Virus record (IMG/VR): IMGVR_UViG_3300032676_000987
Origin: an uncultured virus (IMG/VR IMGVR_UViG_3300032676_000987)
Taxonomy: Duplodnaviria; Heunggongvirae; Uroviricota; Caudoviricetes
Reading direction: 5' to 3' (one strand)
DNA: 63,955 nucleotides
The notes below the pieces were generated by a model. That model did no database searches. It was not told the DNA's origin and was given only the letters and a program-made list of their open reading frames with translations. A program made the position numbers and the translations under genes. Below are positions 5,366 to 63,601 of this stretch, in pieces. Numbering within the stretch: the first letter of the stretch is position 1; each line of letters begins with the position of its first letter.

Positions 5366-5793
5366 CATTAGTTCTGTATATCGCAGAAATAAAAGGGGTT
5401 GACACCTATACCAAACCTGGAATTACAACAGATTTATACAGTCGCACCAATGCATATACTAAAATCGGAAATACAGCAGTAATACATTTTTTAGCTATTG
5501 CTCAGCCAGGTTTTGAGGGGCAGATCAGAACCTTAGAGGAAGACGGGAAAACCTACCTAAAACCCCATAGGTCTAGATTTAATGGACTAGATCGTACAGA
5601 ATATATAAGTGTCAGTAAAACTGGCATCACACCATCTGTGGTAGAAGAATATTTTCGCAAAAAAATTGAAGGTATTCCATCTGTACATATTGTAAAAAAG
5701 GAATATCTTCCTCTTAACATAGAAAGTCCTGACCTTAAGAATTTTATTACACTCGCACTTAAGTATCCAGATAAATATCTTGAAAATTTTTAG
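5362..5793 (+). CDS. GIY-YIG-like (T5orf172-type) domain protein
   Basis: LYIAE...TKPGITTDLYSR pattern; ATGA overlap with the upstream gene. Confidence 0.45.
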   Translation: MTLVLYIAEIKGVDTYTKPGITTDLYSRTNAYTKIGNTAVIHFLAIAQPGFEGQIRTLEEDGKTYLKPHRSRFNGLDRTEYISVSKTGITPSVVEEYFRKKIEGIPSVHIVKKEYLPLNIESPDLKNFITLALKYPDKYLENF

Positions 5794-6156
5794 TAGTTGG
5801 AGTAAAACTGGCATCACACCATCTGTGGTAGAAGATATCGCAGTTTGTTTTGCTGCTAATAAAAGCTGCTGAGATAAACCTAAACTTCTATAATTAGGAT
5901 GAACCCAAAGACCGCGGCTCCTAAACTCTAGTGGACTAGATAAATGTCCGCTGTTAACGGCAATTAAATCTCCCCCATCGTAAATTCCCCAAAAATAAAC
6001 TGGATTACTGAATATACCCATGTCGTATGGTTCAGCTTTTGGCTTAGGCCAAGTCATAGCACTATGTGTTTCAATTTCTGACATTCTGTCGGGCCATAGT
6101 TCATTTTTCCAAATAGGAAGAATCTGAGTGAAAGTTATAACCTGAACATCTAGCAT
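5587..6156 (-). CDS. GNAT acetyltransferase, C-terminus replaced at the 35-bp repeat
   Basis: RSRGLWVHPNYRSLGLS acetyl-CoA motif A. Aligns with 55630-56079 up to about 5836, then diverges. Confidence 0.7.
   Translation of the reverse strand: MLDVQVITFTQILPIWKNELWPDRMSEIETHSAMTWPKPKAEPYDMGIFSNPVYFWGIYDGGDLIAVNSGHLSSPLEFRSRGLWVHPNYRSLGLSQQLLLAAKQTAISSTTDGVMPVLLQLLKIFKIFIWILKCECNKILKVRTFYVKRKIFLFYNMYRWNTFNFFAKIFFYHRWCDASFTDTYIFCTI
5614..5835. repeat. 35-bp exact direct repeat (5614-5648 and 5801-5835)
   Basis: AGTAAAACTGGCATCACACCATCTGTGGTAGAAGA occurs at both positions. Confidence 0.95.
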
Positions 6157-6165
6157 ATGAGTATC

Positions 6166-7116
6166 CTACGTGCCTACAGTTAATTTCTGGTTTGAGTAGA
6201 GTTCGTCTTTGTACAAATACACTACCATATCATTATATTTAACTTGTTCTGATAATTTATATCGAAATAGTATATCAAATGCTCTTTTACTAGGCATATT
6301 ACCATATCGAATGCGTTCTATAGGTGTTAACGTATTATGTTCGTCATAATAGTCTTTGATTAACTCAAATCCGGTAAATTTGGTTTTCTGTGGAATAACG
6401 GGTATACCTGCTTTATGAAGTATTGATATTTTATTATTATACTTATGAAGCATTTCTATATGCCACTCTAAGCCTTTAGTTTGGTCCTCTAGAGGATCAT
6501 ACATAAACTGAGCCATAGCGGCAGCTAACTCTGCGTCGTGTAGAAGGAAGAACGGAATTACATTAGTGTTTACGTCAGCGTATCTCTTAAGACCCAAAAC
6601 AGTATAGGTATAGCATCCTTCTTGAATAAAGTTTCCGCTGAATATATTTGTACCAGATACCATTTCGGCTATTTTCATATGAGAGCATATATGAGGACTT
6701 GTGCAACGATATTTGGCAGCATAATCGTAAAGATGGTTCTCTAGAAAGTCAAAGATATTAAGCTGTTTGTAAGTTATAGGTATGTTGAATTTATTTGCAA
6801 ATTCTTTTAACTGTTCAAGATCATGTTCGTTGTAAACCTTTCCAGTATTGTCTACATATTCTATAGAGATACAATTAAAAGGAACACCAGAATGCATCCA
6901 ACACCAAAGCATAGTCTGACTGTCGGAACCACCGCTTACCATAAGATTATATGGTGCAGGGTACTGGTTAGAAATATCGCGTATGACTCTCTTAGCGATT
7001 TCAGTTATTTTATTGTACGTTGGGGTAAGATTAGATAGGTCTATGTGTAACTGCTTTTCTTCATGAAAAACATCAGAGAATTCGCTTCCCCAACCCATCC
7101 TAGTCCATTGGTGCAC
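6166..7116 (-). CDS. PP-loop (adenine nucleotide alpha-hydrolase / Asn-synthetase-like) protein
   Basis: LMVSGGSDSQ PP-loop; paralog of 62666-63526. Confidence 0.7.
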   Translation of the reverse strand: MHQWTRMGWGSEFSDVFHEEKQLHIDLSNLTPTYNKITEIAKRVIRDISNQYPAPYNLMVSGGSDSQTMLWCWMHSGVPFNCISIEYVDNTGKVYNEHDLEQLKEFANKFNIPITYKQLNIFDFLENHLYDYAAKYRCTSPHICSHMKIAEMVSGTNIFSGNFIQEGCYTYTVLGLKRYADVNTNVIPFFLLHDAELAAAMAQFMYDPLEDQTKGLEWHIEMLHKYNNKISILHKAGIPVIPQKTKFTGFELIKDYYDEHNTLTPIERIRYGNMPSKRAFDILFRYKLSEQVKYNDMVVYLYKDELYSNQKLTVGT

Positions 7117-7122
7117 TGAATC

Positions 7123-7347
7123 CTACCATTTATTAATCGGACAGGAAGCTGATTTTAATTTAGTTTTTGCTAACATAAAGCAGCCGCATAACTTACATTG
7201 GTGAGTAAGATGAGTAAGCTCCGGGCACCCTTTACATATGTCTAGTCGCTGCTCGGCTTCGATTGATGTTACAACTTCGATGGCCGAACTTACTTGGTCT
7301 GCTACCTCAGTCAATCGTTGCTTAAGTTTATCAGCAAACGAAGTCAT
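7123..7347 (-). CDS. Small Cys-rich putative metal-binding protein (DUF6171-like)
   Basis: RLDICKGC...CKLCGCFM.AKTKL..ASCP..KW pattern. Confidence 0.7.
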   Translation of the reverse strand: MTSFADKLKQRLTEVADQVSSAIEVVTSIEAEQRLDICKGCPELTHLTHQCKLCGCFMLAKTKLKSASCPINKW

Positions 7348-7349
7348 TG

Positions 7350-9233
7350 TTACTTACCGAAAATTCTGAACTTTACGTTAGAAGGTAACCGATTATAATC
7401 GACCTTGAAGTAACCGGATTCTGTATTGACCACAGCCTTTTCGTGAACTGTACCGATCAGCTCTTGTGCCATTACACCAGAAAGCCTACGATGCTTATCC
7501 CAAATATAGTTGTATGAATAGATATTCAGTCCATCTATAGTGTCCTCTAAGAGGATATTGTCCTTAACTCTCTCGTCACTACCATATTGACAATAGCAAC
7601 CAAATTTCCCGCTGCCCAGACACGCAAAAGGTCCTTCAAGATAACAGTCGTCAACGCCGCAATATCCGTTAGTCAAACAGGTATTGGCTAGTAATACTGC
7701 ATTTACTACAGGATCTGTCGTAGGAACTAGTGTAGAGATATTGCCTAACGTTACCCCATCTCTGAATACAAACAACATAACACTAATATTTTGAGTTGCA
7801 CCAGAGGCTGAGTACGTTGTTAAGCTCAAAGAAGGAAGTTGTTCATATGGATCGGTTATTGTCGGAGAGGTAATAGTCATTAGTCCGGTTTCATCGATTG
7901 TGACGTAACTAGGTAAATCTGGTCCAGTGATTCTAGTGATAGGTGCATTGACTAGTACATCTGAATAGTACGGCTTACCTGATTCTGAAATTATTCTGAT
8001 TGTAGGAGACACTATAGCAACTGATTGTAGGTATGATGCGATTAAATTCTCAGAAAGAGCATATTTAGGGTCAGAAAGATTCAGCACATCTTTCTTACCT
8101 AAACACATCATTCTGTACATCGTATTATCGTCCATAGTAATATTTGAAGTTGACAATACCCCTGCAAAGTAATCTTTTCTGGCACTATGATTTGTGTAAA
8201 CACTAGGTGTATTTCCGTTACTATCTACATATACACTTAAATTATGAGCAATAGCTCCTGAAGCAATTGCAGAAGAAGCTGAAGTACCTGCAATAAATGC
8301 ATATGTACCTTTTAATCCAGCAGCCCAAATCTTCTCTCCAGGTGCCCAGCCGTCTAGCGCGCCAGAGTTTGTAGTAGAACCCGTTACCGAAATAGCGCTG
8401 CCTGTGTAATCAGAAAAATCACTAGGGGTTAGTGAGTGACCAAATGAACCAATAGTCAATACATCAGGAATAGCAGCAGGGGTAACGTCACCGATTGTAG
8501 TTCCACTATTACCAGCAGCAGCTACCACAAAAATACCTAAATCGATTAGCTCTTGAATTTTAGAGTCTACATATATGTTTCTGGCAATAGACCAACTTAA
8601 GTTAAGAACTGATGGAGGAAGACCATTGCTATTATAATCTACTGCAATCGCATCTAGTGCTGATAATAGATCACTTTGTTTAGTGGCAGTGTTAATATCG
8701 AATACCTTAACTACCTTAATTTCAGCTCTAGTCAGCCCACAAGTATCACCTGCAACTAAACTAGCCAAAGCAGTGCCGTGTCCCTTTGTATCAGTAAAGT
8801 CAGTAGTAAAACTATGTAACAAAGTAACTTTAGCGTTCGTAAAATCAGGATGAGTAGCTTCGATTCCGCTGTCCATAATATATACGACGCTACCAAAACC
8901 ACGACGTTCCTGTGTGTAAGTTGGCTTGGAAAGATCAACGTCATTAAGAGAAACTACCTTCCACCAATCCTTATCGTCATGTACCTGTATATCTAATTCT
9001 TCGCTCTTTGGTTGAGTCACTGTGATATCAAAATCTAGAAGTTTGATATCATTGCCATCATCAGAATTTACTTTTAGTACTGAGGAATCGACCTTAGGTT
9101 CTACCTCTGAGGAAACAAGATGTACATTCTTGAAAGTCGTGTATGCCTTTACTGAGGTCATGTTATTAGCGGCTAAATATGCGTTGATATCAGCATCAGA
9201 TAACGTGGTAGCAAAGTCGATTAGATAATTCAT
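7350..9233 (-). CDS. Subtilisin-like S8 protease with prodomain, Cys-rich segment and C-terminal S74 self-cleaving chaperone domain
   Basis: Triad motifs VYIMDSGI, GHGTALAS and AGTSAS; oxyanion AAGNS. C-terminal SDERVKDNI...YSYNY...GVMAQEL...KVDY. Confidence 0.85.
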   Translation of the reverse strand: MNYLIDFATTLSDADINAYLAANNMTSVKAYTTFKNVHLVSSEVEPKVDSSVLKVNSDDGNDIKLLDFDITVTQPKSEELDIQVHDDKDWWKVVSLNDVDLSKPTYTQERRGFGSVVYIMDSGIEATHPDFTNAKVTLLHSFTTDFTDTKGHGTALASLVAGDTCGLTRAEIKVVKVFDINTATKQSDLLSALDAIAVDYNSNGLPPSVLNLSWSIARNIYVDSKIQELIDLGIFVVAAAGNSGTTIGDVTPAAIPDVLTIGSFGHSLTPSDFSDYTGSAISVTGSTTNSGALDGWAPGEKIWAAGLKGTYAFIAGTSASSAIASGAIAHNLSVYVDSNGNTPSVYTNHSARKDYFAGVLSTSNITMDDNTMYRMMCLGKKDVLNLSDPKYALSENLIASYLQSVAIVSPTIRIISESGKPYYSDVLVNAPITRITGPDLPSYVTIDETGLMTITSPTITDPYEQLPSLSLTTYSASGATQNISVMLFVFRDGVTLGNISTLVPTTDPVVNAVLLANTCLTNGYCGVDDCYLEGPFACLGSGKFGCYCQYGSDERVKDNILLEDTIDGLNIYSYNYIWDKHRRLSGVMAQELIGTVHEKAVVNTESGYFKVDYNRLPSNVKFRIFGK

Positions 9234-9261
9234 AATGGGTTCCTATAATCGGGAGTATATG

Positions 9262-9272
9262 TCTTATTTATC
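9262..9272 (-). promoter_or_regulatory. Late promoter (TAAATA) for the subtilase operon
   Basis: Minus strand GATAAATAAG about 35 nt upstream of the ATG, followed by AGGA SD. Confidence 0.55.
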
Positions 9273-9300
9273 ATCGGAGATCATCTTATCAAATTAAACA

Positions 9301-9329
9301 TTGACATTATCTTATAATCATTGTATTAT
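9301..9329 (+). promoter_or_regulatory. sigma70-type promoter
   Basis: TTGACA-N17-TATTAT upstream of RNase H. Confidence 0.75.
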
Positions 9330-9351
9330 AGTGAAAATAATGAGGATATAG

Positions 9352-10350
9352 ATGATAAAGTATGCATTAGTAGATACTGCTAACACATTCTTTCGCGCTC
9401 GGCACGTCGCGTCTCGCAATAGCGACACGTGGGAAAAGATCGGGATGGCGATGCACCTAACGCTGTCGTCTGTCAATCAGGCTGTTCGCATGTTTGACAT
9501 TGACCACGTTGTGTTTTGTCTTGAAGGACGTTCTTGGCGCAAGAAGTTCTATGCTCCTTATAAGGCCAATCGAGTAGCTACTAATGCTACTGAGGCCGAA
9601 GTCGAAGAAAACAAGATGTTTTGGGAGACGTATGAAACGTTTACTAACTATCTTCGTGAAAAGACCAACACTAGTGTCCTTCGCTGCGAGAATGCAGAAG
9701 CCGATGACCTTATCGCTCGCTTCATTCATCTGCATCCTGAGGATCAGCACTACATCCTGTCGTCTGACACTGACTTTGTGCAGTTGATTAGCGAGAATGT
9801 GAGTCAGTACAACGGTGTTGCTGGTCAACTGATCAAGCTTGACGGTTACTATGATGATCGTGGCCGTCCTGTTAAGGACAAGAAGTCCGGCACACAAAAG
9901 CTTTTGGAAGACCCCGAATATCTGCTGTTCAAGAAGATCATTCGTGGTGACGCCACTGATAACGTGTTTAGTGCTTATCCTGGCGTGCGAGAAAAGGGAA
10001 GTAAAAATACAGTAGGCATTAAGGAAGCATTTGACGACCGCACGAAGCAGGGCTTCAAGTGGAATAATCTGATGCTTCAACGGTGGACTGACCATAACGG
10101 TGTCGAACACCGTGTTAAGGATGATTATGAGCGTAATCGTACTCTCATCGATCTAACTGCTCAACCGCAAGAAATTAAAGAGGCGGTCGATGCTGTTATT
10201 CGCGGAGATGTTCGTACTAACATTACTCCTCAGGTCGGCGTTCATCTGATGAAGTTCTGTGGTAAGTACGAACTTAATAAGATTTCTGAACAAGCCGAAA
10301 CTTTCTCTAAATGGCTGAACAAGCCTTATTCTGGAGCATTACATGAGTGA
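9352..10350 (+). CDS. rnh: T4-type RNase H / 5'-3' exonuclease (FEN/PIN fold)
   Basis: LVDTAN, SWRK.FY..YKANR, EADDLI, SSDTDF.QL and GDATDNV motifs. Confidence 0.9.
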   Translation: MIKYALVDTANTFFRARHVASRNSDTWEKIGMAMHLTLSSVNQAVRMFDIDHVVFCLEGRSWRKKFYAPYKANRVATNATEAEVEENKMFWETYETFTNYLREKTNTSVLRCENAEADDLIARFIHLHPEDQHYILSSDTDFVQLISENVSQYNGVAGQLIKLDGYYDDRGRPVKDKKSGTQKLLEDPEYLLFKKIIRGDATDNVFSAYPGVREKGSKNTVGIKEAFDDRTKQGFKWNNLMLQRWTDHNGVEHRVKDDYERNRTLIDLTAQPQEIKEAVDAVIRGDVRTNITPQVGVHLMKFCGKYELNKISEQAETFSKWLNKPYSGALHE

Positions 10351-27646: not shown

Positions 27647-28225
27647 ATGCTACCGCCGCTATCTGGCGAACAAAAGATGTGGTATATCCTTAAGGGGTAT
27701 ACTATTAACGTGGACGTATTCGGAAATCGGGAGTGGTGTCTAAACGGACAACTTCACCGAGAAGACGGCCCGGCGTGTGAATATGCGAACGGCATTCGGG
27801 ATTGGTATCTTAACGGGCAACGTCACCGAGAAGACGGCCCGGCGGTTGAATATGCGGATGGAACTCGGTATTGGTATCGCTACGGAGAATACCACCGAGA
27901 AGGCGGCCCGGCGGTTGAAGATGCGAACTTCGGTCGGCATTGGTATCTTAACGGGCAACGTCACCGAGAAGGCGGCCCTGCTATTGAATATGCGAACGGC
28001 GATCGGCATTGGTATCTTAACGGGCAACGTCACCGAGAAGGCGGCCCTGCTATTGAATATGCGAACGGCGATCGGCATTGGTATCTTAACGGGCAACGTC
28101 ACCGAGAAGACGGCCCGGCGGTTGAATGGGAGAACGGCAATCGGGCTTGGTATCTAAACGACCAAAACATGACCGAACAAGAACACCGAAAACTCACTCA
28201 AAAGAAAATGGCTAATATCGGTTGA
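27647..28225 (+). CDS. 23-aa (HREDGPA) repeat protein, 6 repeats
   Basis: 29-aa head + 6 x WYLNGQRHREDGPAxEYANGxRx + 25-aa tail = 192 aa. Confidence 0.9.
   Translation: MLPPLSGEQKMWYILKGYTINVDVFGNREWCLNGQLHREDGPACEYANGIRDWYLNGQRHREDGPAVEYADGTRYWYRYGEYHREGGPAVEDANFGRHWYLNGQRHREGGPAIEYANGDRHWYLNGQRHREGGPAIEYANGDRHWYLNGQRHREDGPAVEWENGNRAWYLNDQNMTEQEHRKLTQKKMANIG
27734..28147 (+). repeat. Tandem 69-bp coding repeat x6
   Basis: TGGTATCTTAACGGGCAACGTCACCGAGAAG... unit; copies 4 and 5 are identical. Confidence 0.95.
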
Positions 28226-28250
28226 CTTCGGATATCCATATCTGTATATT
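28222..28250 (+). promoter_or_regulatory. sigma70-type promoter overlapping the repeat-gene stop codon
   Basis: TTGACT-N17-TATATT; the TGA stop lies within the -35 box. Confidence 0.7.
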
Positions 28251-41341: not shown

Positions 41342-44300
41342 ATGATTTCCAGCATAAAAATTACTAGTCTTAACAACATAGGGTCTAATCTCAGTTACAC
41401 CTCTCTATTCCCTGTGGTTGATATGTCAGGTACCCCGACTACTAAAAATGCTAATCTTCAAATTGTGGGGAATCTAATTCTTAGTGGTGCTGGTGGATCA
41501 TATTTTCCGCCGGCAGGCCAAGCAATTTTAGCACAATCAGTAACTAACGCCGCGCAACCAAACATAACCAGTGTTGGTACACTAGCTAACTTGTCAGTCG
41601 TTGATGTCAGTACTGTTAGGATTCCGGGCGGGAACAATGGATATGTTCTACAGACTAATGGTAATGGTAATCTATCGTGGACTGCTCAAAGTGGTTCAGG
41701 AAACGGCAATCCGGGCGGAGCAAACTCTCAGATTCAGTTTAATGATTCTGGTCTATTTGGTGGAAGCCCGTCATTGACCTGGGATTCTCCCAACACACAA
41801 TTAAACACTGTAAATTTTGCTGCCGAGCAAGCTACTATCTATGGTCCTTTAGCAACAGTTGATGCAACTGTTACTGGTAACCTAAACCTTGATGCTAATA
41901 TCAATGGTACTAGAGGATTTATTACAATAAATCCTGATCCCGGTAATTCCGGTTTAGCATGGCAATTTGGTGATGAGGGTCCTAATGTCAGTCTGTTAAT
42001 TGCTCCACAGAGTGATGATGCGAACATCGGTGGTATATCATTGCCGGGTTATTCCGGAGAAGCTTTCTTGGGTTGGTTAGGTAATACTGCTAACTTATTG
42101 CCCTCGCCATTTATCAATACTTTATTAATAGACAGTTCAAATAGTGTAACTATCTCGACACAGTTGGGTATGGGCTTTGGTTCTGCAGGTTGGGTATTTG
42201 ATCATGCAGGTAACTTGACTCTTCCAGGTAATGGTGAAGTGGCAATCAATTATGCAAATGGTGTCCCATACGGTGGAGGTGGTAACACAGGTAATGTTAC
42301 ATTCAATGATATTAACATCATTGGCACTGGTAATTTACATTTACAGCCTAATCCCAACAATGCAGGTGCATTTTTGGATATATACTTAACTATCGGTCCA
42401 GATATTCACATTGCAGGTAACGGTGAAAATCTAATTCTTGGAAGAGATAATAACGCAAATGTATCAGTAAATGCAAACGGGTCAGTTAGTATTCAATCAA
42501 CTGATTTTGTTTCGGTTGCACCAACTACAATAGTTATCAGCGGTGCTGATTTTGCAACGGTGAACACTACGTACATAAGAGACCTCAATCAGCTAACGCC
42601 AAGTTGGTATCCGGCGGGTTACAATCCAGCTACTGATCCTTATATACTTTTTGATACGGAGTGGGGAATTTGGACCCCAGGATTCGGTCAAGCACTTTAT
42701 GTGAACATCGGAACATTGACTAATCCATTAACTCAGTGGAATACTAATCCTCCTTTAGGTAGTGTTCCTCCTACTGGAACGTATTTCCCTACAATCAACA
42801 CTAACCTTTGGACGTTCGGCACCGATGGCAACTTAACAGCGCCTGGCAATGCAGATTTCAATGGCAATGTAGTTACAATTGGATCGGGTGCAAGCGAACT
42901 AGCAGCATCATTACAAAACGCCACACTTGTAATAAGTGATAATGGTTCTGCATATGTACAGGCAGCTATCACCAACGTAGCAGATATCGGTTCTGCTGAC
43001 TGGGTCGCTTACGGGCATCACGGCAACGACGCTGGGGGTTGGGTCGATGTGGGCTTTACTAGCTCATTCTTCAGTGACGCCAATTATACTATAACTGGTT
43101 CAGGTGATGGTTATCTGTTTGCTGAGGCCTATCTTCCGGATCAGGCCCCAGCTATAGGTGGCGGCAATTTAGTGTTGGCAACAGGTTCTCAGGGTACAAC
43201 TAAGGACATCATATTCGGTACCGGCGGATTCTTGACAGAAAATATCTTTGGTAGAATAAGCGATTCAAACAACGAACTTGAGTTATCCCGTACCGGAAGC
43301 AGTCTTAATTTTGTGGGCGGCGGAAATATTATCGGCGCCAACAATATTCAGGCAGGCAATCTAACTGTAAACAACATTAATCTTTCTGGGCATATATTTG
43401 GTACTTCTAATCCTAGCCTTGAAGGGTCAGCTACTGGACAGATGTCAAGTGGCAACTTAACTACGGTATCATATACCGCAGGCGCCCAATCAGTGATTGT
43501 TGTTGCCAGTGCATGTGAAACCGGAAATTCCGGGGGAAATGCAGTTGCAAGTATTACTGGTATTACTGGATTAGGGTTAACCTGGATTCAAAGAAGTTCT
43601 TACGTTGACCCAACTACATTATGTGGGCAAAAGAGTGAAATATGGTACGCTATTAACAACAGCGCTACTCCTGTTTCGGGAGTCATTACTATTAGCTTTG
43701 ACATAAATGTAGATGATCAAAGTACTATAGTTTCTAGTTATCAAAATGTAAATCTTAACAATCCATGGACTAGTTCTGGTCCACAATACAGCAATCAAGT
43801 AAACCCAACCAGCAACGTTGCTACTATAACAGCAAATATAGCAGAACACAACACAACAGGTGTTGTATTCATGTCTACTCCGAATTTTGGTAACAGTGAG
43901 AATGGTGCAGGATATGCGGACGGATGGAACACGGTCAATCAGGTTCTTAACAGCGGAGCTGATCTATGGGAATACAGCTATTTCAGTTGTTTACCATTCT
44001 TAAACCCGCAATCCGATCTAGTAGTAAACAGTACTAATGCTGTATTACCGAATGACGCCGACGGAAATGCTACTGGATTAACTATTATTTTTGACGCTTT
44101 GCTAGGAGGTACCGGACTATCAGTTGATCGTTTAAGCAACGGTGCGTATAGCGCAATATTGACTAGTTCAGGAAATCTCAATCTTCCTGGCAATCTAGCA
44201 GTGAGCGGTGGAGTTATTACTGGTGGTATACCTACGCAGATAGACATAAATGATTCCATAACCGGTATTAGTATAGGACCAAACTGTAATGTAACACTCA

Positions 44301-45865
44301 GCGGTAATACTTTTAATTATGCAGAAAGAGGTACTGTTGTAATTGGCAATGTTAATTCAACTACTCAAGCGATAGGTACTTGGTATTATGAGGCGTCTTG
44401 GTTTAACGCATTTAATATCTTTACGGATAATACATATAGCACACCCGTAGATTCATCTACTTGGACAACGTTTGTAGGACCTACAGATGGCACTGCTACT
44501 ATTACAGGTTATTCCCCTATTGTACCCATTACCATAGATGCAGGTGGATATCAAACTGTATTTGGAATAGACGGTAATATATATTTACCATCTAATGAAT
44601 TAGGAAACACTGCATCTATAAGCACACCATTTAATGCTAATCTATCATTTAAAGTAGGTGGAACTAACACATATACTTTAGGATATGATGGTAATCTAAC
44701 ACTACCTGGTAATACATTCGCTGTTAACTATGCCAACGGCACACAGGTCAACATTGGTGGCGGTGGTGGTGCAACTAATCTCATTGCCAACGGTAACAGC
44801 TATGCCAATATAGCCACAGCAGACGGTAATTTGGTAGTCAATGTGGGCACGGATGGCTACGGAACTTGGATCTTTGAAACAGGCACGGGCAACTTGATTG
44901 GCCCCGGTAATGTATCCCAAGGTGCTGGCATTGTGTTCAGCGCAGAACAAAGTGTTTACATCCGTGAGGACATGGGTCAACTAAACATAGATGCTTTTGG
45001 TACAGTAATCACAAGCAATTCTGGCAACACCGGCAATACCCAATCTTGGAACTTTGACAACGATGGTAACTTGACTGTGCCGGGCAACATAATCGGCAAC
45101 AATCTTGGCAATCCAATGTATATCACCGGGGCAACTGCCAATACTGACCGTATAGCTGGCACATTGGTCTTGAGTGGCGGCAGCACAACCAACGGCATAG
45201 GTGGACTTCCGTCGGCTGGTGGAGCCTTGGTATTAAATGGTGGCACCGCAACTGGCTGTGCGACCGTGGGCGGCAGTGTGTTAATCAATGCCGGGCAAGG
45301 CGACGGTGACTGGGGAAATATAACTCTAACTGTCAACTCAAAAGCCACGCTGTTCAACGAATCCGGTCAGGTAATATTGCCCGCAGTCAAGATCGGTACA
45401 GAAATCACGTATGATCCAGGCAATCCTTACGAAGGTGAGCAGCTGGGCCTATACGGCACACGCAGAATCATATCACCTAACTCGGGCAACACCAATCAAG
45501 TTACAATTTCTACCATCATACAGAGTCCACAGTTTGGCTCTCCACAGGTGGTCTACACCGCATACAACGCAAAGGTCTGGGCATTTCGGATGACCATGCG
45601 TATCCAACACGGAGCCGGCACACCGCAAAACATGCAGATGGCCGATATTTTTGCCGCCAGAAATGATTCGGGCGACATAACTTACAGCATAACCAATCGA
45701 CTCAAAACAGATCCAACCGAAGATGATGTGGTGATTGTTCCTGCCTATGATCCAATCTACGGCACCATGTTCATCAATGCCACTGCTACTGGCAACGGAA
45801 CAGCTGCCAATGGATCATACTACTTTACATTCGATGTTGTAGAATTCAACCAAACTTTTGATTAG
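41342..45865 (+). CDS. Long tail fibre / receptor-binding protein (1507 aa)
   Basis: Gly/Asn/Thr-rich; AQPNITSVGTL, PGGANSQIQFND, repeated GNLTLPGN. Confidence 0.8.
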   Translation: MISSIKITSLNNIGSNLSYTSLFPVVDMSGTPTTKNANLQIVGNLILSGAGGSYFPPAGQAILAQSVTNAAQPNITSVGTLANLSVVDVSTVRIPGGNNGYVLQTNGNGNLSWTAQSGSGNGNPGGANSQIQFNDSGLFGGSPSLTWDSPNTQLNTVNFAAEQATIYGPLATVDATVTGNLNLDANINGTRGFITINPDPGNSGLAWQFGDEGPNVSLLIAPQSDDANIGGISLPGYSGEAFLGWLGNTANLLPSPFINTLLIDSSNSVTISTQLGMGFGSAGWVFDHAGNLTLPGNGEVAINYANGVPYGGGGNTGNVTFNDINIIGTGNLHLQPNPNNAGAFLDIYLTIGPDIHIAGNGENLILGRDNNANVSVNANGSVSIQSTDFVSVAPTTIVISGADFATVNTTYIRDLNQLTPSWYPAGYNPATDPYILFDTEWGIWTPGFGQALYVNIGTLTNPLTQWNTNPPLGSVPPTGTYFPTINTNLWTFGTDGNLTAPGNADFNGNVVTIGSGASELAASLQNATLVISDNGSAYVQAAITNVADIGSADWVAYGHHGNDAGGWVDVGFTSSFFSDANYTITGSGDGYLFAEAYLPDQAPAIGGGNLVLATGSQGTTKDIIFGTGGFLTENIFGRISDSNNELELSRTGSSLNFVGGGNIIGANNIQAGNLTVNNINLSGHIFGTSNPSLEGSATGQMSSGNLTTVSYTAGAQSVIVVASACETGNSGGNAVASITGITGLGLTWIQRSSYVDPTTLCGQKSEIWYAINNSATPVSGVITISFDINVDDQSTIVSSYQNVNLNNPWTSSGPQYSNQVNPTSNVATITANIAEHNTTGVVFMSTPNFGNSENGAGYADGWNTVNQVLNSGADLWEYSYFSCLPFLNPQSDLVVNSTNAVLPNDADGNATGLTIIFDALLGGTGLSVDRLSNGAYSAILTSSGNLNLPGNLAVSGGVITGGIPTQIDINDSITGISIGPNCNVTLSGNTFNYAERGTVVIGNVNSTTQAIGTWYYEASWFNAFNIFTDNTYSTPVDSSTWTTFVGPTDGTATITGYSPIVPITIDAGGYQTVFGIDGNIYLPSNELGNTASISTPFNANLSFKVGGTNTYTLGYDGNLTLPGNTFAVNYANGTQVNIGGGGGATNLIANGNSYANIATADGNLVVNVGTDGYGTWIFETGTGNLIGPGNVSQGAGIVFSAEQSVYIREDMGQLNIDAFGTVITSNSGNTGNTQSWNFDNDGNLTVPGNIIGNNLGNPMYITGATANTDRIAGTLVLSGGSTTNGIGGLPSAGGALVLNGGTATGCATVGGSVLINAGQGDGDWGNITLTVNSKATLFNESGQVILPAVKIGTEITYDPGNPYEGEQLGLYGTRRIISPNSGNTNQVTISTIIQSPQFGSPQVVYTAYNAKVWAFRMTMRIQHGAGTPQNMQMADIFAARNDSGDITYSITNRLKTDPTEDDVVIVPAYDPIYGTMFINATATGNGTAANGSYYFTFDVVEFNQTFD

Positions 45866-45874
45866 GAATCATAA

Positions 45875-46615
45875 ATGTCAGCAAACATAACACCATTTAA
45901 CTCGGACGGCGGGTTTAGCACAACAGGCAATATTACTGGTGGCAACATTGCTACCTCAGGCACAGGTGGAGATATCACTTTAACTGGTGGTAACATCGCT
46001 GGTGCTAATAATGTCAGCACTGGAACTGTCACACTTGTAAACGGTGCTGTATTAAAAGATAATGCGGGCAACGCAGTATCATTTGGTCCAGGTGCCGGCC
46101 AAACATCGCAAGGCGACTCAGCAGTGGCTATTGGTCCTTCGGCTGGTGGGAACACCCAAGGCATTGAATCAGTGGCTGTTGGTTCGCTGGCTGGATATGA
46201 CACTCAAGGCAATAACGCAGTGGCGGTTGGTTCATTTGCTGGTCAAACTAATCAAGGGTTACAAGCAGTGGCTATCGGTGGTGGTGCTGGTGCAACCAAT
46301 CAAGGTGTCTACGCGGTGGCAATTGGCGCGGCTGCCGGTGCCGCGGGCAATTCAGCAGTGGCCATTGGTGTAAGTTCTGGTTTTAGTAATCAAGGTAATT
46401 TTGCAGTGGCCATTGGTGCCAGTGCTGGTGCAACCAATCAAGGCAACAATTCAATCATATTGAATGCCACTGGTAGTAGCTTAGATCAACCCACAGCCAA
46501 CACATTCACAGTGAAACCTGTGCGTGGTGATAGCACAGCCAATTTAGTCAGCGGAGGATTCAAAGCAGTGTATTACAATTCCACCACTGGTGAGTTCTGT
46601 TACAGTACCGATTAG
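45875..46615 (+). CDS. YadA-head-like repeat adhesin
   Basis: About seven QG..AVAIG..AG repeats. Confidence 0.8.
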   Translation: MSANITPFNSDGGFSTTGNITGGNIATSGTGGDITLTGGNIAGANNVSTGTVTLVNGAVLKDNAGNAVSFGPGAGQTSQGDSAVAIGPSAGGNTQGIESVAVGSLAGYDTQGNNAVAVGSFAGQTNQGLQAVAIGGGAGATNQGVYAVAIGAAAGAAGNSAVAIGVSSGFSNQGNFAVAIGASAGATNQGNNSIILNATGSSLDQPTANTFTVKPVRGDSTANLVSGGFKAVYYNSTTGEFCYSTD

Positions 46616-46623
46616 GACAATCA

Positions 46624-47352
46624 ATGGCAATAACATTTGGACCTGGAATAACCCTCGGAGCAGGAATATACACAGCACCTCCATTGGTAACTGATGGGTT
46701 ACTGTTAAATTTTGATGCCGCTACATATTCAGGGTCAGGCAACTGGGTTGATAGTTATAATGGCGTTCAAGCGGTTCCTACAAATGCGCCAGCCTGGAGT
46801 TCAACTAATGGCGGAACTTTTGTATTGGATGCTCCGTCGGTTCAATACTTTACTGTGCCTTGGCCCACATTTCAGCCTACCTACACCATAGACATATGGT
46901 TTAACTTTACAGCCAGTCAAGTTGGCGGTGCCCCTTGTTTAATATCTGATGAATTTACTGGTGCGCAATTTAACTTTACAATAAACGCCTCTGCTGATTA
47001 TCTACAAACAGGCTGGTACGATACTAACTGGCAGGGACAGTTTGCTACCAACAATGTCGCAACAGCATTTACACACGATGGATCAACTTGGTACAATATT
47101 ACTATGGCAGTAGGTGCCGCAGAATATAAAGATTACATCAACGGTGCTGTAAGTTATGCGCCAGGCAACTTTGGCGGCGGAGCAGCTCCTAACGGTAGTA
47201 GTCCTACACAGAGATTTTTTATTGGACATCGTTGGGACTTGGATGAAACAGTAAATGCCAAAATAGCTGTGGTCAACATCTACGACCGTGCCTTAACCGA
47301 TGCAGAAGTCTCCCAAAACTTTAATTATTATCGCTCACGATTTGGTCTATAA
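46624..47352 (+). CDS. LamG/concanavalin-A-like domain protein
   Basis: VTDGL.L..DA..YSGSG.W, YING and IYDRALT..EV.QNF motifs. Confidence 0.85.
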   Translation: MAITFGPGITLGAGIYTAPPLVTDGLLLNFDAATYSGSGNWVDSYNGVQAVPTNAPAWSSTNGGTFVLDAPSVQYFTVPWPTFQPTYTIDIWFNFTASQVGGAPCLISDEFTGAQFNFTINASADYLQTGWYDTNWQGQFATNNVATAFTHDGSTWYNITMAVGAAEYKDYINGAVSYAPGNFGGGAAPNGSSPTQRFFIGHRWDLDETVNAKIAVVNIYDRALTDAEVSQNFNYYRSRFGL

Positions 47353-47362
47353 GGATAACACA

Positions 47363-48196
47363 ATGACAAAGCAGCCCGTAATTGATCAATCACAAGATCC
47401 GGGAATTAATCGCACACCCGTAAAGTTCAAGCCAGCTAACCTTCCGATGGCCATTCCCAAATATCATTGGGTACGGGATTTACCTGATTCTCGTGATTAT
47501 ATTTACAAACCCATAGCATCCGTAACTCCGTCGACCGTTGATCTTAGATCATACTCGACACCAATAGAGAATCAGGGTCCATTGGGAAGTTGTACCGGAA
47601 ACGCCATCGCAGAGGCAATAGAGTATCTAAACAGAAAAAACAATAAGAGCACCGAAGTAAGTAGATTGTTTATCTACTATTACGAACGTCTTATCGAAGG
47701 CACAGTTAGCTACGACAGTGGTGCATACATACGCGACGGTATTAGAGCCACATATACATACGGTGCTTCTCTAGAAAGTCTCTGGCCTTATAATATTACT
47801 AGATTTAAGCAGGCACCTTCTCCTGCTGCGGTATCTGATGGATTGAGACGCAAAGTAACATTATACGAGAGAGCGTTAGATTTTAGTGCGTGTATCAATG
47901 CATTGTCTAACGGGTATCCTGTTACGGTCGGGTTTGATGTATACAGTAGCTTTGAAAGTACCACGGTAGCACGAACCGGAATAATGCCGTATCCTAACGT
48001 TCGCACTGAGCAACTTTTAGGTGGACATGCGGTTCTTCTTGTAGGATATAATAATAGTACCCAACAATTTATTGCGAAAAACAGTTGGGGATCCAATTGG
48101 GGTGATCATGGGTATTTTTATATGCCATATGCGGTCATTCAAAATACCAACATGAGCAGTGACTTTTGGATCATAAAATCCGTCAACAATCCATAA
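47363..48196 (+). CDS. Papain-like C1 cysteine protease
   Basis: NQGPLGSCTGNA, GGHAV..VGY and KNSWG..WG..GYF motifs. Confidence 0.93.
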   Translation: MTKQPVIDQSQDPGINRTPVKFKPANLPMAIPKYHWVRDLPDSRDYIYKPIASVTPSTVDLRSYSTPIENQGPLGSCTGNAIAEAIEYLNRKNNKSTEVSRLFIYYYERLIEGTVSYDSGAYIRDGIRATYTYGASLESLWPYNITRFKQAPSPAAVSDGLRRKVTLYERALDFSACINALSNGYPVTVGFDVYSSFESTTVARTGIMPYPNVRTEQLLGGHAVLLVGYNNSTQQFIAKNSWGSNWGDHGYFYMPYAVIQNTNMSSDFWIIKSVNNP

Positions 48197-49487: not shown

Positions 49488-49549
49488 TTCACGTCTCCGT
49501 TTGTTGAGTCAATCTCTATGATTCATAGTAACAAAACACATACCCGAAG

Positions 49550-49783
49550 TCAACCGATATTAGCCATTTTCTTTTGTGTGAGTTTTCGGTGTTCTTCTTC
49601 GGTCATGTTTTGGTCGTTTAGATACCAAGCCCGACTTCCATCCGCATATTCAATCGCAGGACCATCTTCTCGGTGACGTTGCCCGTTTAAAAACCAATCC
49701 CGAGTTCCGAATACGTCCACATGAATGGTATACCCCTTAAGAATATACCACATCATTTGTTCGTCAGATATCGGAGGTAGCAT
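49550..49783 (-). CDS. 23-aa repeat protein, 1 repeat (paralog of 27647-28225)
   Basis: Same 29-aa head and 25-aa tail ending KKMANIG. Confidence 0.85.
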   Translation of the reverse strand: MLPPISDEQMMWYILKGYTIHVDVFGTRDWFLNGQRHREDGPAIEYADGSRAWYLNDQNMTEEEHRKLTQKKMANIG

Positions 49784-55587: not shown

Positions 55588-55629
55588 TTGAAATTAATAT
55601 TCAAGCAGTTTGGTTCTATAAATATTAGA

Positions 55630-56079
55630 ATGACTGACAAACTTATAACCATATCGTTCGATGAAATTTTACCAATCTGGCGAAACTATCTGTGGCCCGA
55701 TAGGATTTCGACAATCGAAACTAACAGTGCAATGTGCAGAACCGGCGGATATTTAGGTTCAAATATGGAAACACCTGCAACATTCTTCGCTTACATGATA
55801 GACGGAGAAATTGCAGGAGTCAACAGCGGTCACATGTGCAATGACAAAGAATATCGTTCTAGAGGATTATATGTATTTGAAAAGTTTCGGGGAAAGGGAA
55901 TAGGTGTTGTACTGCTGAATGCTACGATTGCACAGGGTAGATCAGAAAAGGCAGTACTATGTTGGAGTTATCCCAGAGATGTTAGTTGGAAGACCTATGC
56001 TAAGTCTGGGTTTAAGTTAACCAGCGATTTTAACCCAAGCGAGACTGGTAACAACGCATATTGCGTGTACTATTATTAG
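55630..56079 (+). CDS. GNAT acetyltransferase (intact paralog of 5587-6156)
   Basis: ILPIW...LWPDR, VNSGH, RSRGLYV...FRGKGIG and WSYPR...Y...GF; TATAAATA upstream. Confidence 0.85.
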   Translation: MTDKLITISFDEILPIWRNYLWPDRISTIETNSAMCRTGGYLGSNMETPATFFAYMIDGEIAGVNSGHMCNDKEYRSRGLYVFEKFRGKGIGVVLLNATIAQGRSEKAVLCWSYPRDVSWKTYAKSGFKLTSDFNPSETGNNAYCVYYY

Positions 56080-59997: not shown

Positions 59998-60054
59998 GGT
60001 TTGTTCCGTTTGCTGAATCTCTATGATTCATATTAGCAAATCAGAGACGTGATG

Positions 60055-60357
60055 TCAACCGATATTAGCCATTTTCTTTTGTGTGAGTTTTCGGTGTTCT
60101 TCTTCGGTCATGTTTTGGTCGTTTAGATACCAATACCGAGCTCCGTTCGCATATTCACACGCAGGACCATCTTCTCGATGACGTTGTCCGTTAAGATACC
60201 AATGCCGATCGCCGTTCGCATATTCAATAGCAGGGCCGTCTTCTCGGTGACGTTGCCCGTTAAGATACCAATGCCGATCGCCGTATGCGCCCAAATCAAT
60301 AGTATACCCCTTAAGAATATACCACATCATTTGTTCGTCAGATATAGGCGGTAGCAT
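60055..60357 (-). CDS. 23-aa repeat protein, 2 repeats (paralog of 27647-28225)
   Basis: 29 + 2x23 + 25 = 100 aa from MLPP. Confidence 0.85.
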   Translation of the reverse strand: MLPPISDEQMMWYILKGYTIDLGAYGDRHWYLNGQRHREDGPAIEYANGDRHWYLNGQRHREDGPACEYANGARYWYLNDQNMTEEEHRKLTQKKMANIG

Positions 60358-62626: not shown

Positions 62627-62665
62627 GTATGTATTTATATAAATATCAAAGAGTTAGGATACATT

Positions 62666-63526: not shown

Positions 63527-63556
63527 TTTTTCACGCAACGCTTGCATAAACGACAT
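63452..63556 (-). pseudogene. Truncated paralog of the Cys-rich protein 7123-7347
   Basis: MSFMQALREKLTEVKEDII.. versus MTSFADKLKQRLTEVADQV; TAAATA upstream; Cys domain missing. Confidence 0.5.
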
Positions 63557-63601
63557 ATTTCTGACCTTCATTACTATTCTTATTTATCATTACCGGTATG
63601 T

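Follow-up and report, generated by a model that had tools for sequence, protein, structure and literature searches.

Four co-oriented genes of an uncultured virus (IMG/VR record IMGVR_UViG_3300032676_000987) raise the question of whether a phage may produce and chemically modify a small peptide, and on which residue. In the 63,955-nt stretch of DNA that was analysed as a whole (hereafter the window), these genes form a cassette whose protease probably cuts a small hypervariable peptide off its own tail and whose PP-loop enzyme probably makes a new bond on the single Lys of that peptide.

Layout and limits of the cassette

According to the ORF calls and Pfam, the cassette consists of four minus-strand ORFs encoding an S8 protease fused to S74, a DUF6171 protein, a PP-loop enzyme and a GNAT, with gaps of 2, 6 and 9 nt, a TAAATA box in front and oppositely directed plus-strand genes at its flanks (Table 1), just as the preliminary description had it. 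Its neighbours are a ParB-like pair on one side and RNase H on the other, away from the structural module. The label "late" for the TAAATA box presumes a promoter of the T4 type. Over the whole window the hexamer is not enriched (70 occurrences vs. 72.9 expected); it occurs in the 70 nt ahead of 67/223 genome ORFs, compared with 14 in the antisense and 2 in the intragenic controls, and upstream of 58/92 homologous S8 genes, compared with 176/787 other ORFs.

The four-gene operon is real and conserved, but its span, previously given as 5587 to 9275, has to be shortened on the left. The GNAT ORF as called (5587–6156, 189 aa, minus strand) loses homology to the intact paralog at about residue 101–107 of about 149 and continues past the break through an exact 35-nt copy into sequence antisense to the neighbouring 143-aa gene; thus the true 3' limit of the cassette is about 5836, not 5587, and the rest of the GNAT ORF is not genuine. 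The same junction occurs in two identical assemblies and in contigs of 4/4 runs, which may themselves be the source samples, the bridging contig having 30 letters on its short side, one below the threshold. Among the GNAT matches in the loci, 72/79 extend to the profile end; the operon copy lacks the C-terminal strand-helix-strand of a complete GNAT fold and is probably inactive, and the intact paralog could act in trans.

Table 1. Features of the cassette and of its paralogs in the window.
Feature	Position	Strand	Evidence or remark
35-nt exact duplicate of 5614–5648, left edge of cassette	5801–5835	.	sequence identity
Truncated GNAT, 107 genuine codons, without C-terminal ~40 residues	5836–6156	-	alignment to intact paralog
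Stand-alone Asn-synthetase-fold PP-loop enzyme (modelled), 316 aa, GTG start	6166–7116	-	SGGxDSQ, NxxD, SP, KxxGFE, F..R
DUF6171 protein, 74 aa	7123–7347	-	six invariant Cys (two CxxC); Pfam and homolog conservation
S8 protease-precursor fusion, 627 aa	7350–9233	-	Pfam S8 E 3e-16, S74 E 5e-5
S74 autocleaving chaperone, start S552-D-x-R-x-K557	7350–7580	-	Pfam 28.7 bits, over cut-off
Predicted core A516–G551, 36 aa, C-x5-C-x4-C-x7-C-x7-C-x-C, single Lys543 (7605–7607)	7581–7688	-	six invariant Cys columns
Leader-like motif D507-x6-L514-L515, predicted second cleavage site	7689–7715	-	L514 near-invariant; register as at propeptide end
All-beta domain aa 411–490, putatively Ig-like	7764–8003	-	strand pattern in model
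Catalytic D121 (8871–8873), H152 (8778–8780), N242 (8508–8510), S318 (8280–8282)	8280–8873	-	invariant in 74 aligned homologs
Propeptide aa 1–66, end D58-x4-I-x-L65-L66, predicted autocleavage site	9036–9233	-	D58, L66 near-invariant
TAAATA box, putative late promoter of cassette	9265–9270	-	~30 nt upstream of S8 start
Intact GNAT paralog, 149 aa, 43% identical	55630–56079	+	own TAAATA at 55619–55624
Second PP-loop paralog, 37% identical, C-terminally truncated	62666–63526	+	deletion joint 63481–63489; TAAATA 62640–62645
N-terminal 30 codons of second DUF6171 gene	63481–63571	-	TAAATA 63581–63586; 100% identical to L227 residues 1–30
Third, distant PP-loop gene of second cassette, C-terminal 117 aa, cut by contig end	63602–63955	-	95% identical to L227 4504–5376

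The paralogs of three parts described previously, each behind its own TAAATA box (55619, 62640 and 63581), are all present, but the PP-loop gene at 62666 is truncated too. It and the DUF6171 remnant flank a deletion of 1,970 nt that occurred at a microhomology of 9 nt, and the Cys half of the second DUF6171 protein is gone along with the entire second S8 gene. In the 99%-identical locus L227 this S8 gene is intact and the PP-loop paralog has 305 aa; the third PP-loop gene is full length in L225. A near-identical strain keeps the complete second cassette that was lost from this genome.

The conserved pair

The proposal had been staked on the genes occurring together elsewhere, and they do so across many phages; the conserved unit, however, is the S8 and PP-loop pair, S74 being rare and the GNAT of this operon broken. 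Of 62 S8-anchored loci, 52 have a PP-family gene no more than 1 kb away and 58 an SGGxDS gene of any kind, the remaining four being two contig edges, one locus with a QueC-like fragment upstream and one unrelated S8. Conversely, S8 is found in 49/52 and 25/26 PP-anchored loci having at least 2.5 kb on both flanks. At L194–L200, which are without this PP family, a QueC-like PP-loop gene lies directly upstream. Across 90 pairs the S8 and PP phylogenies are correlated (Mantel rho 0.87; 0.66 within the Cys-tailed proteins) and the trees share 34/46 supported splits; paralogous cassettes within one genome each have their own PP-loop gene, and a phage with a 79% identical RNase H carries a distant S8/PP pair. 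The carriers are uncultured freshwater jumbo phages; 50,697 phage records include no cultured one. The neighbour clusters listed contain no conserved exporter or immunity gene.

The PP-loop enzyme

The GTG start of the PP-loop gene is supported by a near-invariant W4. The product gives weak PP-loop/QueC Pfam matches; its model (pLDDT 92.6) superposes loosely on AsnB (Z 13.2, rmsd 4.7, 271 aligned residues, 8% identity), with human ASNS (13.0), beta-lactam synthetase (11.8) and carbapenam synthetase (11.5) close by and TilS (7.7), Cap9 (7.6) and QueC (7.3) in a lower group. No N-terminal glutaminase domain was found, the 316-aa model aligning to AsnB 119–515 only, and a weak search among 7,999 long candidates returned no fused longer forms.

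The preliminary description had proposed an Asn-synthetase-like enzyme and named grouping with tRNA or nucleotide modifiers as the outcome that would tell against it; by its modelled fold, the enzyme groups with the asparagine, beta-lactam and carbapenam synthetases. The tRNA modifiers (TilS, MnmA, TtuA, ThiI) reach Z 7.3–8.3, far under AsnB, CxxC occurs in 1/80 family members, and the TilS model scores 20 bits against a cut-off of 93.6. It is highly improbable that the enzyme modifies nucleotides or deazaguanine, standing in for QueC alongside the FolE/QueD/QueE genes clustered immediately left of the window, and that it merely travels with the protease. Such a role would suit the weak QueC Pfam matches in 25/72 members and the genome G000 (73% complete), which has FolE, QueD and a QueE-like radical SAM gene and no canonical QueC, but hardly the fold nearer AsnB, the strict adjacency and tree congruence with S8, or a complete 343-kb carrier with two cassettes and no QueD. 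The zinc motif given as the QueC hallmark in section 6 of PMC13329287, C(x)8CxxCxxC, is missing (C-x2-C-x2-C in 0/80 members), and the substrate motifs VPxRN and YPDC are not among the conserved columns (P-x-R-N anywhere in just 9/80), which speaks against QueC or Cap9 identity.

A protease with a core-like tail

The S8 protein, whose N-terminus is not signal-peptide-like, was modelled with a pLDDT of 87 and has proteinase K as its best Foldseek match (E 1e-18). The Asp-His-Ser triad (motifs in 90/93 locus representatives), the oxyanion Asn and the N-terminal propeptide point to a proteinase-K-like protease with a hypervariable C-terminal tail, its proteolysis and autocleavage sites being predicted from motifs. 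In 119 homologs the propeptide-end motif has D in 82% and P1 Leu in 91%, and autocleavage is expected there from subtilase biology. At the sequence level, the motif ahead of the tail copies this propeptide end: in an alignment of pre-core leaders to the propeptide register that did not use Asp as an anchor, 69% of 156 leaders have Asp at the corresponding offset, against 12% (maximum 24%) in shuffles, yet 42% have it at the next offset. The pre-core P1 is variable (Gln 20%, Leu 16%, Ala 14%) compared with that of the propeptide, and the two sites do not covary within proteins (p 0.5–0.95).

In the predicted core the pLDDT of the AlphaFold model falls below 50, and the non-Cys identity is 0.27 where that of the protease is 0.84; the leader region is conserved only as well as the beta domain (0.51), which itself has no Pfam match. 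A conserved leader, a variable core within a precursor and clustered maturases, the general marks of a RiPP, are all present, and in its variability the Cys-rich segment resembles a hypervariable core. S74 is recognised by its Ser-Asp-x-Arg-x-Lys start (S552, K557) and Pfam score; we place its cleavage site in the 627-aa protein by the presumed S74 mechanism, and self-cleavage would free the C-terminus of the core. The S74 fusion described earlier exists here but is not general: S74 is found in 7/93 non-redundant S8 genes and Hint, an unrelated self-cleaving domain also directly following the core, in 6/93, the other tails stopping just past the core.

S74 and all-beta domains are typical of virion fibres, which favours the tail staying attached. 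The S8 protein and its beta domain would then form a virion appendage, with the Lys of its variable tip modified, or joined covalently through the PP-loop enzyme to a carboxylate of a virion protein so as to anchor the protease. The TAAATA boxes of 58/92 S8 genes and the S74 of 7/93 agree with this, a terminal Lys (see below) would suit an intermolecular link, and in other loci DUF6171 comes after long proteins that have Pro/Ala linkers and Cys-rich ends, along with oxygenase-like and glycosyltransferase-like genes. We nevertheless consider it unlikely, because the pre-core motif mimics an autocleavage site, 80/93 homologs have neither S74 nor Hint, and the cassette lies outside the structural module. 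A distant 1,251-aa S8 protein of jumbo phage Atu_ph07 does appear in a virion mass-spectrometry table in the supplement to PMC6102473 (3 peptides, 2% coverage), but it has another architecture and no PP-loop neighbour.

The constant residue of the tails

The idea of a modification system acting on the Cys-rich segment stands in so far as the segment is hypervariable and core-like, but, judging by sequence, the constant chemical feature of the tails is Lys, not the cysteines. Lys occurs in 70/70 and 113/113 Cys-rich cores (exactly one in 58 and 94), with no Lys-less core observed in these sets where a Poisson expectation gives about 30%, although the two sets overlap and the homologs are related, so that these counts are not independent events. 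In 56/70 and 107/113 cores it precedes the last CxC by at most 9 aa (shuffle maxima 33 and 54). An even number of Cys is found in 66/70 and 113/113; Asp and Glu are both missing from 15/151 cores. Cys-less tails, which arose at three places within the Cys clade, each with Lys and without DUF6171, carry Lys at −1/−2 in 22/23 cases vs. a background of 248/1253, and as the last residue in 13/23; the S8 protein at L119 has no Lys near its C-terminal end. Among control Cys segments from 78 DUF6171 loci without S8 or PP, 3/29 contain Lys. DUF6171 is found no more than 1.6 kb away from 41/56 S8 genes with a Cys tail, compared with 1/22 of those with a Cys-less one (Fisher p 1.7e-8), and looks like a helper (disulfide or folding) of the Cys-rich tails, not a substrate.

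Lys might also be a binding determinant, the freed disulfide peptide acting, through a P1-type Lys held in a constrained loop, as a canonical protease inhibitor or as a channel/receptor ligand, and the PP-loop enzyme modifying another position. A single Lys in the loop ahead of the terminal CxC and a hypervariable surface on a fixed Cys frame would suit this, as would what we take to be a resemblance to small disulfide inhibitors with defensin-like spacing. It is made very doubtful by Lys–Cys spacings ranging from 2 to 9 residues, by Arg (0.7–1.4% of core residues) not replacing a Lys that every core has, and by the Cys-less tails, in which Lys stands at the extreme C-terminus with no loop.

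The GNAT homology is real, but as the tailoring enzyme that it had been proposed to be, the GNAT is broken here and loosely linked elsewhere: 26/78 S8 genes have it no further than 1.6 kb away, it is frequently remote or encoded on the opposite strand, and it occurs without S8/PP nearby in the RsoM2USA region and L296. Its family is nonetheless present in 14/19 cassette-bearing records (3/3 near-complete ones) and in 0/78 control DUF6171 loci without S8/PP, which counts against giving the core Lys to the PP-loop enzyme, since Lys could be the site of the GNAT. In such a division of labour the GNAT would acylate Lys, as GNATs acylate Lys/Orn side chains in the selidamides of PMC8784127, and the PP-loop enzyme would activate the core C-terminus, its carboxylate having been exposed by S74 or Hint where present, so that it could be amidated or closed head to tail onto the amine released by S8. 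The scattered positions and broken state of the GNAT, along with a PP-loop enzyme that has no glutaminase domain and gave no longer fused forms in the weak search, render this distinctly unlikely.

A proposed pathway

We tentatively favour, at a little less than an even chance, a late RiPP-like pathway that frees a peptide held by disulfides, with the PP-loop enzyme making an amide link at its Lys. The S8 protein would be made in the cytoplasm and, as subtilase biology suggests, remove its own propeptide after D-x4-I-x-L-L; from the similarity of the motifs, it would also cut the look-alike pre-core motif, freeing a peptide of about 28–73 aa (median 40), and in this phage S74 autocleavage would free the other end to give A516–G551. 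DUF6171, to judge from its co-occurrence and the even Cys counts, may help Cys-rich cores form 3–4 disulfides. With ATP, the PP-loop enzyme would adenylate a carboxylate and form an amide bond on the single Lys of the core, the fold suggesting the chemistry and the invariance of Lys the target. The acyl group could come from the C-terminus of the peptide itself, from a metabolite or from another protein; since Lys is the last residue in 13/23 Cys-less tails, closure onto the own C-terminus fits poorly. The GNAT would be an accessory, broken in this operon. Such a fast-diverging, gained-and-lost product would most likely serve conflict with the host or competitors.

Comparison with known systems

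Lasso peptide pathways likewise combine a leader-core precursor and a protease with an ATP-dependent enzyme of Asn-synthetase fold that makes amide bonds, and an Asn-synthetase-like enzyme is found here (AsnB the best fold, SGGxDS in 78/80 members). The analogy with lasso cyclases drawn earlier nevertheless fails on the precursor rules. A lasso macrolactam uses an acidic residue near core position 7–9; Asp/Glu stands there in 29/151 predicted cores, and in 13/151 together with a small first residue, figures that depend on the predicted cut. Neither the B2 transglutaminase-like peptidase PF13471 nor B1/RRE PF05402 (PqqD) is present in G000 (73% complete) or among the neighbour clusters listed, and on these grounds the cassette is not counted as a lasso pathway. 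Here, moreover, the precursor is fused to the S8 protease, the carriers are almost only phages, and the invariant residue is Lys, unlike the lasso linkage of the N-terminal amine to an acidic residue (PMC8498205).

Beta-lactam and carbapenam synthetases and AsnB are the best structural neighbours (Z 11.5–13.2) and share the SGGxDS loop. These enzymes act by adenylation followed by amine attack; the phage enzyme differs in having no N-terminal glutaminase-type domain, about 300 aa and 7–10% identity, and in being tied to a protein precursor. Borosins are enzyme-precursor fusions in which the processing enzyme carries the core at its C-terminus, an arrangement repeated here, although the fused enzyme is a protease, not a methyltransferase. 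The maturation proteases PatA/PatG of cyanobactins and QhpE also belong to S8, with NCBIfam matches far below cut-off; unlike cyanobactin pathways, the cassettes have no YcaO or other cyanobactin genes and have self-cleaving S74 or Hint followers.

Cap9 (type IV CBASS) and QatC are PP-loop enzymes repurposed to build an amide on a partner protein (bioRxiv 2025.04.06.647259; PMC13329287), and QueC-like genes stand in for our family at L194–L200; those enzymes, however, modify an N-terminal Gly with deazaguanine in bacterial defence, whereas the phage family has no zinc motif and a Z of 7.6 to Cap9. In selidamides, as presented in PMC8784127, the precursor has a conserved Lys and a GNAT gene close by; here no Nif11 or nitrile-hydratase-like leader is seen, the GNAT is short, loosely linked and broken, and the PP-loop enzyme is the constant partner. 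The phage cassettes at L005–L082, which combine a Cys-rich fibre tip, DUF6171 and tailoring genes, frequently 2OG oxygenases and sulfotransferases, are without S8, PP-loop and GNAT genes (0/78) and mostly without Lys (3/29), but share with ours a late gene with a hypervariable C-terminal Cys segment and an adjacent DUF6171. Look-ups turned up no tailoring cassette of this sort that contains the S8 and PP-loop pair. Antibiotic-style peptide chemistry of the kind proposed here appears to be undescribed in phages.

Organisation and setting of the operon

Four minus-strand ORFs separated by gaps of 2, 6 and 9 nt lie behind a TAAATA box, in agreement with the preliminary description; the genes encode a proteinase-K-like S8 protease with a hypervariable C-terminal tail (the core), a DUF6171 protein, a stand-alone PP-loop enzyme (PP) and a GNAT. 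The window makes up one end of a linear virus record of 258,859 bp (G000, 73% complete). Its RNase H shares 48–49% identity with the counterparts in GAP32/BF-type jumbo phages. Window DNA is present in lake-water and freshwater runs, possibly the source samples, and there was no RNA run among the runs listed as containing it. TAAATA is not over-represented across the window. It lies upstream of 67 of the 223 genome ORFs versus 14 antisense and 2 intragenic controls, a bias indicating a genuine promoter-type motif; its lateness is our assumption from the T4 analogy.

Coordinates of the features discussed (nucleotides of the window unless the S8 protein or another record is named)
Feature	Position	Remark
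Operon	5587–9275	minus strand
Source of the 35-nt copy in the operon GNAT	5614–5648	
Segment bypassed by a joint in run X20	5801–9375	
Core difference of P0001, a database variant with 99% identity to the S8 protein	7581–7688	two residue changes in the core loop, immediately ahead of the Lys
Scattered genes of a 23-codon repeat	27647–28230, 49511–49783, 60016–60357	80–92% DNA identity mutually
Region of a 1,507-aa gene	41342–48196	the gene lies behind TAAATA and has no family match; after it come a gene with a laminin-G domain (PHROG virion structural protein) and a papain-family C1 protease
GNAT paralog	55630	intact
Second PP-loop gene (PP2)	62666	
DUF6171 remnant	63556	
Oxygenase-like gene shortened to 94 aa	L225 7874–8158	window's own strain, past the window end
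7-Deazaguanine-type cluster	G000 C1 ~62,660–71,800 (L290)	beginning of the window and the DNA directly to its left; FolE, QueD/PTPS, QueE-like radical SAM gene, two glycosyltransferases, 516-aa gene, 193-aa gene
S8 catalytic residues	D121, H152, N242, S318	invariant in aligned homologs
S8 propeptide-end motif	D58/L65/L66	
S8 pre-core motif	D507/L514/L515	
Putative released core	A516–G551 of S8	

The operon GNAT is broken: only about 107 codons are genuine, after which comes an exact 35-nt copy of another segment (Table), and the ORF then reads on across the neighbouring gene in antisense. Two identical assemblies and contigs of all four runs share this junction. An intact allele, which would point to an assembly artefact, did not turn up in the loose ends and joints inspected, a set short of 6 loose ends and 11 pieces. 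Related loci carry a full-length GNAT in 72 of 79 matches. The family is found in 14 of 19 carrier records, the three near-complete ones all included, lies near 26 of 78 S8 genes, often on the opposite strand, and also occurs with no S8/PP pair nearby. The GNAT is accessory or acts in trans, an intact copy being present elsewhere in G000. Acylation of the core Lys by the GNAT, a type of reaction known from selidamides (PMC8784127), with the PP performing C-terminal chemistry, we consider quite unlikely. Among cultured phages this GNAT family occurs in a single record, Ralstonia phage RsoM2USA (L297; 43% identical), which has the GNAT only, with no S8, PP or DUF6171 within the 18 kb examined. 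Further recurrent neighbours of the cassette are 2OG oxygenases, sulfotransferase-like genes and QueC-like genes.

Cassette duplication and strain-level instability

All three proposed paralogs are present; those at ~62.7–64 kb proved to be the ruins of a second cassette. That cassette survives at a 99% identical locus (L227): PP2, another S8 with a Cys/Lys tail of its own and another DUF6171, plus a third PP-loop gene and genes for a sulfotransferase and an oxygenase-like protein. Comparison with it shows that 1,970 nt are missing from the window between two copies of a 9-mer. In the window's own strain (L225) the oxygenase-like gene of this second cassette is shortened as well (Table) and the sulfotransferase is gone, an additional deletion relative to L227. 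At the first cassette, contig depth is below that of the left flank in 4/4 runs, and run X20 contains a joint that skips the entire cassette (depth 18 versus 44; tentative, with 30 letters on the short side). Taken as an ancestral empty site, this joint, 5800/9376, would not be a clean one, since exact joining would delete the first eight RNase H codons. The loss of the second cassette, the drop in depth and the skipping joint together indicate that the cassettes are accessory and unstable at the strain level. Elsewhere (L090/L223), a tandem duplication of the form PP-S8-PP-DUF6171-S8 carries two different cores.

The PP-loop enzyme and its linkage to the protease

The S8 and PP family is large and nearly all viral. 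The PP family forms 480 clusters at 50% identity, is 93–100% viral in the four Atlas clusters listed, and has no member in 50,697 cultured-phage records, in which no full-length S8 of either subfamily was found; the S8 of Atu_ph07 (PMC6102473) is a different protein. A search of 185,579 prokaryote genomes (GTDB) with S8 gave one match, a MAG contig of 7 kb that carries the entire cassette and is probably viral.

Modelling of the PP (pLDDT 92.6) gave asparagine synthetase B as the closest fold (Z 13.2, rmsd 4.7, 271 aligned residues), followed by human ASNS, beta-lactam synthetase and carbapenam synthetase, with TilS, Cap9 and QueC at 7.3–7.7 and no lasso cyclase among the fold matches listed. 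A PDB sequence search with the PP alone yielded no match, and its profile matched PP-loop stretches only, the best being QueC (E 0.0025). The glutaminase domain is absent, none of 80 family members has the QueC zinc motif as defined in section 6 of PMC13329287, and a weak search for longer, fused forms gave none; from the metagenomes, the best 80 of 233 PP matches were used. By its fold the enzyme does not group with tRNA or nucleotide modifiers; such a grouping had been named as fatal to the original proposal. A nucleotide-modifying role appears highly improbable. A co-fold of PP residues 1–305 with S8 residues 405–551 (beta domain and tail), ATP and Mg (score 0.01, mark 0.32) supports neither side.

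As anticipated, the two genes recur together. PP lies within 1 kb in 52 of 62 S8-anchored loci, and some SGGxDS gene does so in 58, a QueC-like one standing in at loci without the PP family; reciprocally, S8 is found in 49/52 and 25/26 well-flanked PP-anchored loci. Gene order varies and the trees are congruent (rho 0.87, 34/46 splits). Shared whole-genome ancestry could account for part of this agreement, but paralogous cassettes within one genome retain separate S8/PP partners, and a distant pair is found in a phage whose RNase H is 79% identical. In a third S8 lineage (L194–L200, also L193 and L207) a QueC-like PP-loop gene takes the place of the Asn-synthetase type, and the Cys/Lys tail is kept.

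The hypervariable core and a second cleavage motif

The AlphaFold model of S8 (pLDDT 87) comprises a propeptide, a proteinase-K-like domain, an all-beta domain and S74, with residues 510–551, containing the core, below pLDDT 50; the Foldseek matches listed were all to protease domains. No signal-peptide-like start was noted in the homologs inspected. Most of the 551 S8 relatives stop a few residues past the Cys-rich segment, and among 93 non-redundant genes from the loci S74 follows in 7, Hint directly after the core in 6 and neither in 80. Non-Cys core identity falls to 0.27 where proteases are 0.84 identical (0.51 for beta domain and leader region), while the Cys count is even in 66/70 and 113/113 cores. 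The changes in P0001 are in keeping with a core that diversifies from strain to strain.

The closing motif of the propeptide is D-x4-[IVL]-x-[LP]-L (Asp 82%, final Leu 91%, n = 119), and a pre-core motif, D-x4-[ILV]-x-L-x, repeats its register, the Asp, which lies outside the anchor, being at the matching offset in 69% of 156 leaders versus 12% in shuffles. This shared register suggests that the protease may also cut off its own core. Against self-release count the variable pre-core P1 and the finding that residues at the propeptide end and before the core do not covary in individual proteins. Amide chemistry by the PP on a virion-bound protein, with no released peptide, is in our estimate unlikely.

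The conserved Lys, the cysteines and DUF6171

No Cys core lacks a Lys: all 70 locus representatives and all 113 database matches have one or more, with exactly one in 58/70 and 94/113 at an overall Lys frequency of 3%. In 56/70 and 107/113 cores it is no more than nine residues ahead of the last CxC (shuffle maxima 33 and 54). Of 120 S8 matches, six were removed before counting (two truncated, two with an unmatched S74 start, one Hint, one long tail) and one was filtered; the sets are related and overlapping, so the counts are not independent events. The Cys core is absent from the second S8 subfamily and from three separate lineages inside the first, and there the Lys is the last or second-last residue in 22 of 23 tails versus 248 of 1253 background ORFs. 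As a control, the 78 loci found through DUF6171 (best 80 of 224 matches) contain no S8, PP or GNAT of these families, and their Cys-rich segments have a Lys in 3 of 29. The Lys moves relative to the Cys frame and persists where the frame is lost. That the Lys serves as a binding residue we hold to be very unlikely.

DUF6171, for which the PDB sequence search gave no match, tracks the cysteines, lying within 1.6 kb of 41/56 Cys-tailed versus 1/22 Cys-less S8 genes (15 of 93 representatives with short flanks omitted). It also occurs in 90 cultured phage records and in a broader class of phage cassettes (L005–L082) encoding long Pro/Ala- or Thr-repeat proteins with Cys-rich, mostly Lys-free ends, after which come oxygenase-like and glycosyltransferase-like genes. 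In the Cys-less subfamily with the terminal Lys (L114–L148), an Asp/Asn-beta-hydroxylase-like gene is conserved upstream, PP and S8 are separated by a metallophosphoesterase-like gene, and an oxygenase-like gene and a GNAT lie downstream.

Proposed mechanism

Gene structure, linkage, folds, motifs and two correlations, of cysteines with DUF6171 and of the Lys with the S8/PP/GNAT set, are directly established. The explanation we favour, tentatively, is a self-released core whose Lys becomes amide-linked by the PP: the cassette would be expressed late, S8 would cleave itself at the propeptide-end and pre-core motifs, DUF6171 would aid disulfide formation in the core, and the PP would form the amide on the core Lys using ATP. 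Three cleavage sites and one Lys across four small genes are thereby predicted, and DUF6171 gains its first testable role.

A bolder and somewhat unlikely version makes the PP family a phage protein ligase, forming an isopeptide bond from the invariant Lys of the hypervariable self-released peptide or of the whole protease to another molecule, the candidates being proteins of the virion or the host and metabolites such as phage-made 7-carboxy-7-deazaguanine. FolE, QueD and a QueE-like gene are encoded just left of the window, which makes a deazaguanine acyl donor possible by analogy with Cap9 (bioRxiv 2025.04.06.647259), although one complete cassette carrier without QueD counts against it. 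No canonical QueC was found in the cluster (G000, L290). Its 516-aa gene, which we take to be DpdA/TGT-like, and its 193-aa gene, presumably T-fold-like, have no Pfam match. With such a ligase, a virus would conjugate proteins by a single enzyme of the asparagine-synthetase fold, its tags barcoded differently from strain to strain.

Comparison with known systems

The cassette is real and widespread and apparently undescribed in phages. No description appeared in the titles and abstract beginnings searched, which come mostly from outside the subscription journals and include a phage-BGC preprint (10.1101/2020.10.01.322628); the passages of Iyer et al. 2021 (PMC7824862, section 3.4.10 among them) do not mention PP-loop, subtilisin or asparagine. 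If the self-released, amide-linked peptide is right, lytic jumbo phages own a peptide-maturation pathway, and nature holds hundreds of disulfide-rich scaffolds together with a ligase tolerant of highly variable substrates, of potential use in cyclising or labelling peptides. On the features tested, the cassette falls outside the lasso (PMC8498205), QueC/Cap9, AsnB and tRNA-modifier families. It would work like a RiPP pathway and constitute a new RiPP-like class with a precise prediction, its design differing from the RiPP classes compared in two respects: a precursor fused to the protease that would cut it, and a Lys-directed amide that a new asparagine-synthetase-fold family would make.
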